DNA of 23,364 nt from Candidatus Falkowbacteria bacterium (GTDB lineage Bacteria; Patescibacteriota; Patescibacteriia; UBA11705; JABHMO01): contig JABJLN010000028.1 in NCBI GenBank assembly GCA_018703365.1, positions 1-23,364 on the forward strand, in the 5' to 3' direction. How positions within the stretch are numbered: position 1 is the stretch's first letter; every line of letters starts with the position of its first letter. A program made the position numbers and the translations under genes. A model generated the notes under the pieces. The model was not told where the DNA came from. It saw only the letters and a program-made list of their open reading frames with translations, and made no database searches. Of the stretch, positions 11,303 to 12,211 are shown one piece after another.

Positions 11303-11335
11303 AGTAATAAGTAAAATGTAAAAGGTAAAAAGTAA

Positions 11336-11704
11336 TCACAACTGTTTTTGAATTGATTTTATCAAACCATTTATAAGTCTTTTCACCTCATCTGCATGAT
11401 TTACTAACTCTTCACAAAAACTGCTTTCTAATATATTAAGACCTCTTGAAACAAGTAAAAAACTTTGCACTTCTGACAACGAACCCCTCGCTTGATAATA
11501 AAATCGAATCTTATCTTTGAAATAATAGCGAGAAAATCCTTCAGCAATGTTGGCGGTGATCGATATTGAAGCTCTTCGGATTTGACTTATAAGTCCAAAT
11601 TTTTCTTCAGCAGGAAAATCCGATGTCACCTCATAAACTTTTAAAGTAAATTTATATGCACGTTGCCAAGCCTTTAAATCGTAATAATTATTTATTTTAT
11701 TCAT
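11336..11704 (-). CDS. Four-helix-bundle protein of the 23S rRNA intervening-sequence / bAvd-like family.
   Basis: YDLKAWQRAYKFTLKVYEVTSDFPAEEKFGLISQIRRASISITANIAEGFSRY...QARGSLSEVQSFL is the signature of the TIGR02436-type family. It is flanked by inverted heptamer arrays (gtaaaaagtaa and ttactttttac). Confidence 0.75.
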   Translation of the reverse strand: MNKINNYYDLKAWQRAYKFTLKVYEVTSDFPAEEKFGLISQIRRASISITANIAEGFSRYYFKDKIRFYYQARGSLSEVQSFLLVSRGLNILESSFCEELVNHADEVKRLINGLIKSIQKQL

Positions 11705-11737
11705 AACAGTCCCTTATTACCCTTTACACTTTACTGG

Positions 11738-12211
11738 TTACTTTTTACGTTGTTCCAAAATTGCCTTTAATTCTTCAGGTCGATTGGTTACAAAAAAGTA
11801 TGGTCGTCTTTGGCCAGCAACTGTAATAACTAAACCTTTACCTCCCCGAGGCACATAACCAACTGTTTTGTCACGACCAAATCGAATACCGTAACCTAAA
11901 TAATTTTGAAACTTATACTCACTAAATTCTATTTTTTTTATTTTACTTATTAAAATACGCTTGCGGAATTTCATAAACCCGAAGATTAAATGCGTATCAC
12001 TTACCTTGATGTTTAACTCTCGAAAAGACGCCAAAATGAAAACATTCAACAATAAAATAATTGCTAATACAGTTTTTGAAGCGTTGTCCAAAGCAATTGG
12101 TTTATCTGTGTACTGCGACATTAGAATTATAAGAAAAATCAAACAGGTGATTACCAGAATCGCAGTAATTAAATGATAAGTTTGAACCTTGTCTTTGAAA
12201 ATTGTTGGCAT
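11738..12211 (-). CDS. Small membrane protein with 2 TM helices and a C-terminal bacterial PH-like (YdbS/DUF304-like) domain, inside the hydrogenase operon.
   Basis: TM segments HLITAILVITCLIFLIILM and VLAIILLLNVFILASF, then a ~90-aa soluble domain ending GKGLVITVAGQRRPYFFVTNRPEELKAILE. Domain assignment comes from architecture only. Confidence 0.4.
   Translation of the reverse strand: MPTIFKDKVQTYHLITAILVITCLIFLIILMSQYTDKPIALDNASKTVLAIILLLNVFILASFRELNIKVSDTHLIFGFMKFRKRILISKIKKIEFSEYKFQNYLGYGIRFGRDKTVGYVPRGGKGLVITVAGQRRPYFFVTNRPEELKAILEQRKK

Follow-up and report, generated by a model that had tools for sequence, protein, structure and literature searches.

The stretch of DNA described here (the window) is a piece of 23,364 nt from contig JABJLN010000028.1 of a Candidatus Falkowbacteria bacterium (GCA_018703365.1), and its subject is a gene of the PF05635 family, that of the 23S rRNA intervening sequence (IVS) proteins, which is flanked by two inverted arrays of heptamers and lies within an operon for a [NiFe] hydrogenase. 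The minus strand is the coding strand of all the genes in this part of the window and, therefore, what a first-pass annotation of this DNA called the left side of the element is its downstream side, and the right its upstream side. In transcript order, all on the minus strand, the following components can be differentiated: (i) the upstream host gene, which encodes a predicted membrane protein of 157 amino acids (11738-12211); (ii) a 5' arm of heptamers (11714-11748); (iii) a spacer of 9 nt (11705-11713); (iv) the cargo gene, assigned by profile match, which encodes a PF05635 protein of 122 amino acids (11336-11704); (v) a 3' arm of heptamers (11304-11335); and (vi) the downstream host gene, which encodes the small subunit of the hydrogenase (PF01058; source name, sulfhydrogenase subunit delta; 10535-11302).

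The 5' arm, read directly from the sequence, consists of five in-phase GTAAnnn heptamers (GTAAAAA, GTAACCA, GTAAAGT, GTAAAGG and GTAATAA) that can pair with the 3' arm. The spacer GGGACTGTT runs from the last of them to the ATG of the cargo gene (11704-11702) and, together with the preceding AA, reads AAGGGA, a possible weak ribosome-binding site that would lie partly within the stem described below (three inner pairs). The 3' arm begins right after the TGA stop of the cargo gene (11338-11336) and reads TTAC followed by four nnnTTAC units (TTTTTAC, CTTTTAC, ATTTTAC and TTATTAC), i.e., five in-phase TTAC cores; a single T separates its end from the ATG of the small-subunit gene (11302-11300). 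Tandem Repeats Finder (TRF) reports 4.7 copies of a period-7 unit at 11303-11335 and, of the four period-7 arrays found in the window, three flank its two PF05635 genes. The first-pass annotation had claimed that heptamer arrays stand here in opposite orientation, that they hold a perfect 11-bp inverted match (gtaaaaagtaa / ttactttttac) and that the right-hand array overlaps the stop codon of the upstream gene. The sequence reading confirms the arrays, the match between the arms is real, and the TAA stop of the 157-aa gene (11740-11738) sits within the second heptamer of the 5' arm.

The proposal that the arms can form a long stem was also upheld by folding. The best arm-to-arm duplex has 27 bp (5+19+3) and an energy of -30.7 kcal/mol, a value reached by none of 1000 dinucleotide shuffles (mean -14.9, best -28.9), and the terminal stem appears in both the minimum free energy and the centroid fold of the 465-nt region. 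Its pairing register differs from that of the 11-bp match; since the arms are tandem repeats, several registers are possible. The arms of the close strains L001 and L002 are identical to those of the window and, for that reason, give no information on covariation. According to the duplex structure, the full fold and the empty site of a related genome (see below), the whole cassette can be drawn as a closed stem-loop (11303-11742, minus strand) of which the 122-aa open reading frame (ORF) forms the "loop". In the predicted duplex, the basal pairs go from A11742-U11303 to A11738-U11307, with the UAA of the upstream gene inside the basal helix and the AUG of the downstream gene abutting it.

The cargo protein matches PF05635 with 121.9 bits (E 1.7e-35; cut-off 33.8) and TIGR02436 with 117.8 bits (cut-off 24), and its residues 9-116 match the solved four-helix bundle of XCC0516 (PDB 2GSC; E 6.4e-15). 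It has an isoelectric point (pI) of 9.35, and an identical protein of 122 amino acids is on record from Candidatus Falkowbacteria. As regards the earlier description of this protein as an IVS protein or bAvd-like, the first half stands and the second does not: its scores are 30.6 with the bAvd model (PF22296; cut-off 40) and 28.2 with the equivalog model NF033474 (cut-off 80). By curated profile cut-offs, then, it is a member of PF05635/TIGR02436 and not the Avd protein of a diversity-generating retroelement (DGR). Profile scans found no transposase domain in this protein, the sole cargo of the element.

At neither arm did the scan call a site resembling a promoter or a terminator, and the promoter-like hits of the region are at chance level (18 vs 17.6). 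As no promoter or terminator of its own was called at the arms, the cassette is presumably co-transcribed with the operon. The alternative that the flanking repeats are transcription signals of the cargo, with a promoter upstream and an intrinsic terminator downstream, could draw on the AT-rich units with their TAAT-like strings and on a real potential to form hairpins. It is nonetheless very improbable: in addition to the lack of called sites, the arms lie 370 nt apart and have no T-run, and the G+C-rich units that occupy the same place in other phyla cannot be -10 boxes for sigma-70.

The association between gene and arms was evaluated in 80 loci (single loci are cited by L numbers), obtained by scanning one genome per GTDB species. 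Their proteins are 47-61% identical to that of the window, and their sources include Patescibacteria, Omnitrophota, Elusimicrobia and Margulisbacteria; all remaining ORFs of 80 amino acids or more within the same loci served as controls (n=221). Nearly all 80 loci have GTAAnnn arrays up to the start codon and nnnTTAC arrays from the stop codon. At least two in-phase units on both sides were found in 51 of 71 homologous genes versus none of the 221 control ORFs. In the same vein, the median flank-to-flank duplex energy was -34.6 kcal/mol in the homologues and -14.0 kcal/mol in the controls (Mann-Whitney p = 5e-24), with z-scores against shuffles of -5.9 and 0.16, and the lag-7 self-identity of the flanks was 0.58 versus 0.34. 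The unit consensus is (C/T)TA-GTAA, with an invariant core of 4 nt and three positions that vary. These variable triplets are shared between the arms of one locus (0.519) beyond what permutation gives (mean 0.367; maximum of 2000 permutations, 0.419). Polarity is fixed, as GTAA lies upstream of the ORF 51 times and the reverse was never seen, and the number of units per array drops sharply beyond five (5+5 in the window copy). The expectation of the first-pass annotation that other copies of this gene family would have similar inverted flanks was thus borne out, as it was by the second PF05635 gene of the window.

The same data bear on the possibility that the arrays are generic simple repeats of host intergenic regions (polymerase slippage, phase variation, G-quadruplex) that lie next to the gene by coincidence. 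Tandem heptamers are indeed reported to outnumber all other intergenic repeats in prokaryotes, and nothing is said to hint at what they do (Mori et al.; PMC6344855); they abound in Xanthomonas and Nostoc without a known gene link (PMC4692102). Nevertheless, this possibility is already contradicted by the present data and has next to no likelihood: no control ORF of the very same loci has both arms, the arms match each other within one locus, different cassettes of one genome have different units, and the arrays accompany the ORF when it turns up at a new site and are missing where the ORF is missing, at the empty site.

That empty site was sought among relatives by protein search and contig look-ups; a metagenome scan with the small subunit gave two distant loci only. 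In locus L085, whose small subunit is 78% identical and where the synteny dinB, beta, gamma, 156-aa gene, small subunit is retained, the stop of the 156-aa gene and the start of the small-subunit gene form a TAA-ct-ATG junction with no PF05635 gene in between. Because of this junction, positions 11303-11737 of the window are extra DNA and, by this comparison, the cassette has been inserted into the hydrogenase operon, with the 157-aa gene on one side and the small-subunit gene on the other, as the first-pass annotation had supposed. PF05635 cassettes were also found at other places of hydrogenase operons, i.e., between the large-subunit gene and hypA in L086 (with ATGTAGC-type arms) and just upstream of the large-subunit gene in L018 and L049.

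Evidence for movement comes from L034 and L035, which lie on one contig about 4.6 kb apart and encode proteins that are 100% identical. Between these two copies, DNA identity starts at the first 5' heptamer and stops 13 nt inside the 3' array, with unrelated sequence on either side, which accords with the earlier suggestion of a mobile element and supports, at the level of sequence comparison, the notion that the array-ORF-array moves as a unit. The empty site and the identical copies both come from related genomes and not from the window's own genome. The comparison of the empty junction with the filled one (TAA-cc...act-ATG) reveals no clear target duplication, and the boundaries of L034/L035 lie within the arrays. 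Mobilisation of the IS200/IS605 type was considered as well. IS608 targets TTAC. This candidate was rejected, given that there are neither such subterminal hairpins nor a TnpA and that TTAC is a chance 4-mer match.

Concerning selection, dN/dS (the ratio of nonsynonymous to synonymous substitution rates) in related pairs is 0.07-0.23, i.e., the PF05635 protein is under purifying selection, and the arms of such pairs are 62-88% identical even where synonymous sites are saturated (dS about 1); hence, protein and arms are both under constraint. With respect to placement, only the arrays separate the cassette ORF from the host genes (median gaps, 38 and 50 nt), and sites between genes of one complex or pathway recur: pheS-pheT (six species), ilvB-ilvN (three), hydrogenase subunits and cyanobacterial cas operons.

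Beyond the close relatives, distant homologues also carry inverted 7-nt arrays made of other units, in cyanobacteria, Bacteroidota, Gemmatimonadota, viral contigs and a true 23S rRNA IVS. Among ten plasmid loci, fetched after a tblastn search (24-57% identity) and with flanks judged by eye, inverted heptamer arrays were seen in about eight, with the unit types AGTCAGA, GGGTGTA, GGGAAGA, GGAGATA, GGTTCAA, GGACGGA/GGACAGA and GGAGGGC. Among 26 non-redundant loci from viral contigs (33-46% identity), 21 had a significant period-7 array on at least one side, 12 had arrays on both, and an inverted repeat reached significance in 19. One locus of the plasmid set, from Azospirillum (L093), has a PF05635 cassette with the same array layout inside a 23S rRNA gene (large subunit (LSU) rRNA model, 500.8 bits). 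The IVS-like flank layout that the first-pass annotation had pointed out in the window thus has its match in a true rRNA insertion, and also in Coxiella (PMC4990558). On the basis of these alignments and array readings, the gene-plus-arms architecture is a cross-phylum trait of the family, and the same as in PF05635-bearing 23S rRNA IVSs.

Some cyanobacterial plasmids carry PF05635 cassettes inside operons of the CRISPR-cas systems: cas10-IVP-cmr3 in L092 and cas6-IVP-cas4 in L090, where IVP stands for the intervening sequence protein. In L090, from a Pseudanabaena plasmid, the arrays are AGCTAAA x14 and AGCCAAA x10. Such cassettes could explain why a large clustering study (PMC10910872) counts "23S rRNA IVP" as a CRISPR-linked gene. 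A survey of rRNA insertions in the candidate phyla radiation lists 23S_rRNA_IVP ORFs, in both 16S and 23S insertions, as uncharacterised.

Taken together, these results are best explained if window 11303-11748 (minus strand) is a copy of a widespread heptamer-armed PF05635 cassette in which no promoter or terminator of its own can be detected. That the element is such a cassette is very probable, and the explanation as a whole, including the mechanism that follows, is probable. The cassette RNA would be carried within the operon transcript, where the two arms would anneal over about 27 bp; the stop codon of the upstream gene would lie in the base of this stem, the stem would end at the start codon of the downstream gene, and the insert would be a closed stem-loop. 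RNase III would then cut the stem, as it does in the rRNA-borne members; cleavage would free the cassette RNA and sever the hydrogenase mRNA, which would leave the 157-aa gene and the small-subunit gene on separate pieces. The closed form of the stem-loop might be what makes such an insertion tolerable even between tightly linked genes. Judging from the folding model, the stem forms in vivo with a likelihood somewhat better than even; cleavage by RNase III in the hydrogenase mRNA, proposed by analogy with rRNA, is quite conceivable while falling a little short of probable.

Several observations weigh against this explanation. The full 465-nt fold is not unusually stable (z = -1.6), and only the terminal stem stands out; in the family, arm complementarity is partial (median, about 83% over 32 nt). 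Mismatches between the arms show no excess of G·U over A·C on the sense strand (105 vs 97) and, therefore, selection for pairing at the RNA level is not demonstrated, though the multiple registers allowed by tandem arms blur this test. L090 and L115 have arrays in direct orientation on both sides, and these cannot form a stem. A stem alone requires neither the 7-nt period, nor the conserved 4-nt core, nor the fixed polarity. Mobility is accounted for neither by a transposase nor by a clear target duplication. Finally, neighbouring genes are co-oriented in 62/65 and 59/64 cases (0.92-0.95), but the genome baseline is already 0.89; as there is no clear excess over it, co-orientation was rejected as evidence.

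Because of the 7-nt period, the conserved core, the fixed polarity, the absence of G·U asymmetry, the direct arrays and the drop in unit counts after five in combination with a pentameric protein, the sequence data suggest that the arrays are more than a stem and have an additional protein reader, possibly the basic cargo protein itself. Carried further, the arrays would be primarily protein-binding sites, in RNA or DNA, most likely for the ring-forming protein of the cassette, with one 4-nt core per 7 nt; they would serve in autoregulation, protection or mobility, with the stem of secondary importance. Such a change would affect the mechanism and keep the identity of the cassette. An invariant GTAA core next to three variable spacer positions speaks for this reading, and so do a period of 7 nt maintained in every phylum whatever the unit sequence, the constant polarity relative to the ORF and unit counts that fall after five in a family whose 2GSC homologue was deposited as five chains and is described as a homopentamer (PMC4990558). 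The high pI and strong purifying selection of the cargo, and the occurrence in one genome of two cassettes with different units and different protein subfamilies (both copies of the window; L004; L086), point in the same direction. Against it, arms of the GTAA/TTAC type flank another cargo in flipped polarity (L086, L085), ORF-less hairpins with such arms exist (L027, L064, L094), the arms of L011 enclose two genes, arrays of more than ten units occur (L033, L058, L075, L090), and mere co-inheritance of arm and gene would yield a correlation between unit and protein. All things considered, protein binding as the primary role is possible but rather unlikely. A further idea for the 7-nt period, namely that three GTAA units place a TAA stop in each of the three frames, was rejected because G-rich units contain no stops.

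It is also conceivable that the stem is left uncleaved and acts as a structural bridge, which would bring the upstream stop beside the downstream start, keep the translation of the host genes coupled and mask the start of the cargo. The geometry of the window is suggestive, as the predicted basal helix takes in the stop codon (UAA) of the 157-aa gene and reaches to the small-subunit AUG, which would mimic the coupled TAA-ct-ATG junction of the empty site. Moreover, the arrays occupy the entire intergenic gap, and cassettes or hairpins occur between subunit genes such as pheS-pheT, ilvB-ilvN and those of hydrogenases, as well as gltB-gltD, groES-groEL, atpA-atpG and atpD-atpC in Xanthomonas. 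Nonetheless, the argument is purely geometric, rRNA-borne copies need no coupling yet retain the arms, and the enrichment may reflect no more than the survival of those insertions that are least harmful. Such a bridge is improbable, and more so than a primary role in protein binding; the preferred reading is still that of an armed cassette whose RNA pairs and is cut.

Variants of the arrangement were observed among the loci. GTAA/TTAC-type arms surround, in flipped polarity, a different cargo in L086 and L085, namely a GxxExxY (PDDEXK_3) gene. In L011 (1498-2246), one arm pair encloses two overlapping genes, PF05635 and a 110-aa ORF resembling a tRNA-binding-domain protein, and the cargo of a cassette can accordingly exceed one gene. 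ORF-less hairpins, in which a loop of ~20-30 nt separates a forward heptamer array from a reverse one, were seen in L027 (826-904), L064 (716-776 and 2432-2490) and L094 (245-341), and also downstream of the gene in L014, L015, L022, L041, L055 and L069; none was seen in the 23-kb window. Those of L064 share the uncommon units GTAATTC/GTAATAC with the arms of the neighbouring PF05635 gene. Very long arrays (>10 units) reach the end of the fetched flank in L033, L058 and L075, heptamer arrays coincide with assembly gaps (N runs) in L074 and L081, and such arrays may break metagenome assemblies.

As a tentative generalisation, which we consider rather doubtful, heptamer-armed cassettes might constitute a bacteria-wide class of mobile or self-maintaining elements that are either cargo-bearing (PF05635, GxxExxY) or ORF-less. 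Their arms might make up a large share of the unexplained excess of intergenic tandem heptamers in prokaryotes, including the GGGAATC repeats of Xanthomonas and those of the cyanobacterial short tandemly repeated repetitive (STRR) type. A pentameric protein would read the 7-nt repeat, one core per subunit, and would be to the arrays what the REP-associated tyrosine transposase (RAYT) is to the paired repetitive extragenic palindromes (REPs) known as REPINs.

The second PF05635 gene of the window (17397-17795, minus strand; profile match) lies upstream of lexA and is divergent, its product being 21% identical to that of the first copy (63.4 bits with PF05635 and 80.9 bits with TIGR02436). As the array runs over the first ATG, its true start is likely, from the sequence, the ATG at 17777; a gene call of 126 amino acids exists for it. 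Its 5' flank (17796-17860, minus strand; TRF 17807-17835) has period-7 units of the types AATTTTC/AATTTAC, and its 3' flank (17335-17396, minus strand; TRF 17352-17400, 7.3 copies) has complementary period-7 GAAAATT units. The duplex of both flanks reaches -16.9 kcal/mol, a value attained by 1 of 1000 shuffles. A scan of viral contigs with this copy as the query returned nothing, and neither did a tblastn search of plasmids with the GxxExxY fragment; as a consequence, the generality of the AATTTTC unit type and of alternative cargo rests on few cases.

The other genes of the hydrogenase operon are, in transcript order and on the minus strand, the 4Fe-4S subunit gene (13026-14000) and the FAD/NAD subunit gene (12232-13029), both before the 157-aa gene, and, after the small-subunit gene, the gene for a pyridoxal 5'-phosphate (PLP)-dependent enzyme (9499-10521) and that for the large subunit (8225-9502). 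Pfam and NCBIfam searches gave no match for the 157-aa membrane ORF; all the same, an ORF of 156/157 amino acids keeps this position of the operon in relatives. Between the small- and large-subunit genes, the "guest" gene differs from one relative to the next: the PLP-dependent enzyme in the window, a NUDIX gene in L085 (5753-6190), a 423-aa unknown in a third relative and, in L086 (5742-6312), a GxxExxY/PDDEXK_3 pseudogene with TTACGGA/TCCGTAA heptamer arms. L086 has, besides, five extra genes, including one for a radical-SAM enzyme, between the beta and gamma subunit genes (545-3150), and it seems that this operon accumulates inserted genes. Elsewhere in the window, a 154-aa ORF without a Pfam hit (16170-16634, minus strand) starts with MCAGIS and lies between lexA and a dinB-like polymerase gene; where it lies and the Cys at its N-terminus hint at an SOS-associated role. 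The Pfam scan took in ten ORFs of the window. Neither an rRNA nor any other family was matched by an Rfam scan of the window, and PADLOC gave no match to a defence system.

The significance of these findings lies in the fact that the PF05635 family, whose members are annotated in a great many bacterial genomes, has lacked a known function since the 1990s. The cassette ties this orphan family and the common, unexplained tandem heptamers together as one discrete movable unit, and offers one concrete context for the abundance of 7-base tandem repeats between bacterial genes. It makes several questions testable: (i) the reading of a 7-nt repeat by a pentamer; (ii) the origin of ORF-less hairpins as derivatives of cassettes; and (iii) excision from mRNAs by RNase III. 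From a practical point of view, cassettes split operons for multi-subunit enzymes (hydrogenase, phenylalanyl-tRNA synthetase, acetolactate synthase) and cas operons, may create spurious "gene associations" in guilt-by-association screens, and coincide with assembly gaps in metagenome-assembled genomes.

Regarding known systems, the window arms differ from a pair of promoter and intrinsic terminator in that they have neither called -35/-10 hexamers nor a G+C-rich hairpin followed by a T-run. With DNA transposons and MITEs (miniature transposable elements with inverted repeats), the cassettes share imperfect terminal inverted arrays, presence/absence polymorphism (L085) and identical copies (L034/L035), but the window element has no transposase and no clear target duplication. 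Correia elements, also known as Neisseria miniature insertion sequences (NEMIS), and enterobacterial repetitive intergenic consensus (ERIC) sequences are inverted-repeat miniature elements that are co-transcribed in operons and whose paired ends form a double-stranded RNA cut by RNase III; in contrast to the heptamer cassette, they are ORF-less, their terminal repeats are non-periodic and target duplications are known. The Avd protein of DGRs is basic and has a homologous four-helix-bundle fold. However, in the neighbourhood of the window gene there is no reverse transcriptase and there are no template/variable repeats, its immediate neighbours being hydrogenase genes and the 157-aa ORF; a search for repeats in 11250-11800 turned up no long pairs in direct orientation. 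In addition, we know of no Avd gene that carries heptamer arms.

The GGGAATC and GGGGA(C/T)T repeats and the cyanobacterial STRR heptamers resemble the window arms as tandem 7-nt units that, in X. campestris, form inverted pairs. Rehm et al. (2015) listed, for X. campestris, 186 arrays of GGGAATC, most with four units, and described these and the GGGGA(C/T)T arrays of Nostoc as possible G-quadruplex formers of unknown role (PMC4692102). Seventy convergent (inverted) GGGAATC pairs lie a few nt from co-oriented flanking genes, often for subunits of the same complex, at sites that include the four Xanthomonas gene pairs named above (PMC4692102). The unit, in contrast to that of the window, is G-rich, and in most pairs the loop holds no ORF and measures 21-67 nt. 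In the data of that study, repeat #15 follows bccP at a distance of 6 nt and overlaps the XCC0516 start codon, XCC0516 being the crystallised PF05635 protein; the terms S23, intervening and four helix are absent from the main text, and the link to XCC0516 goes unremarked (PMC4692102).

The REPIN-RAYT system, in which the flanks of a gene share a short repeat that is dispersed in intergenic regions as ORF-less inverted doublets, with hairpins in single-stranded DNA or mRNA (PMC3116915), is the closest conceptual analogue for the coexistence of cargo-bearing and ORF-less forms. By analogy, it suggests that the cargo protein could serve the repeats. The differences are that (i) RAYTs are relatives of HUH/Y1 transposases, whereas the cargo of the window belongs to PF05635, an unrelated family, and has no known catalytic motif; (ii) REPs are single palindromes of ~16-20 nt and not tandem 7-nt arrays; and (iii) the link of ORF-less hairpins to PF05635 within one genome is anecdotal (L064, L027).

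The nearest relatives are the S23p/PF05635 IVSs of the 23S rRNA in Coxiella burnetii, Leptospira and Brucella (PMC4990558). In the literature searched, the published record of heptamers in such IVSs concerns one arm in one species, Coxiella, and is not family-wide (PMC4990558); a full-text search found no paper that states a family-wide rule of PF05635 gene plus heptamer arms, and older partial descriptions are possible. The window copy differs from these IVSs in three respects: (i) it lies in a protein-coding operon and not in an rRNA gene (helix 9, 25 or 45 of 23S); (ii) its excision would cut an mRNA between two genes instead of fragmenting an rRNA; and (iii) its heptamer unit is another one. 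In the C. burnetii IVS, two or three GACAGAT heptamers precede the S23p start within a terminal stem of 28 bp, and RNase III cuts were mapped to mid-stem by rapid amplification of cDNA ends (PMC4990558). In anatomy the two agree: both have a cargo of the same family encoded in sense within the host transcript, terminal inverted repeats that form a stem of ~28 bp in the rRNA and would form one of 27 bp in the window, and tandem heptamers in that stem, which amount to 5+5 units in the window.

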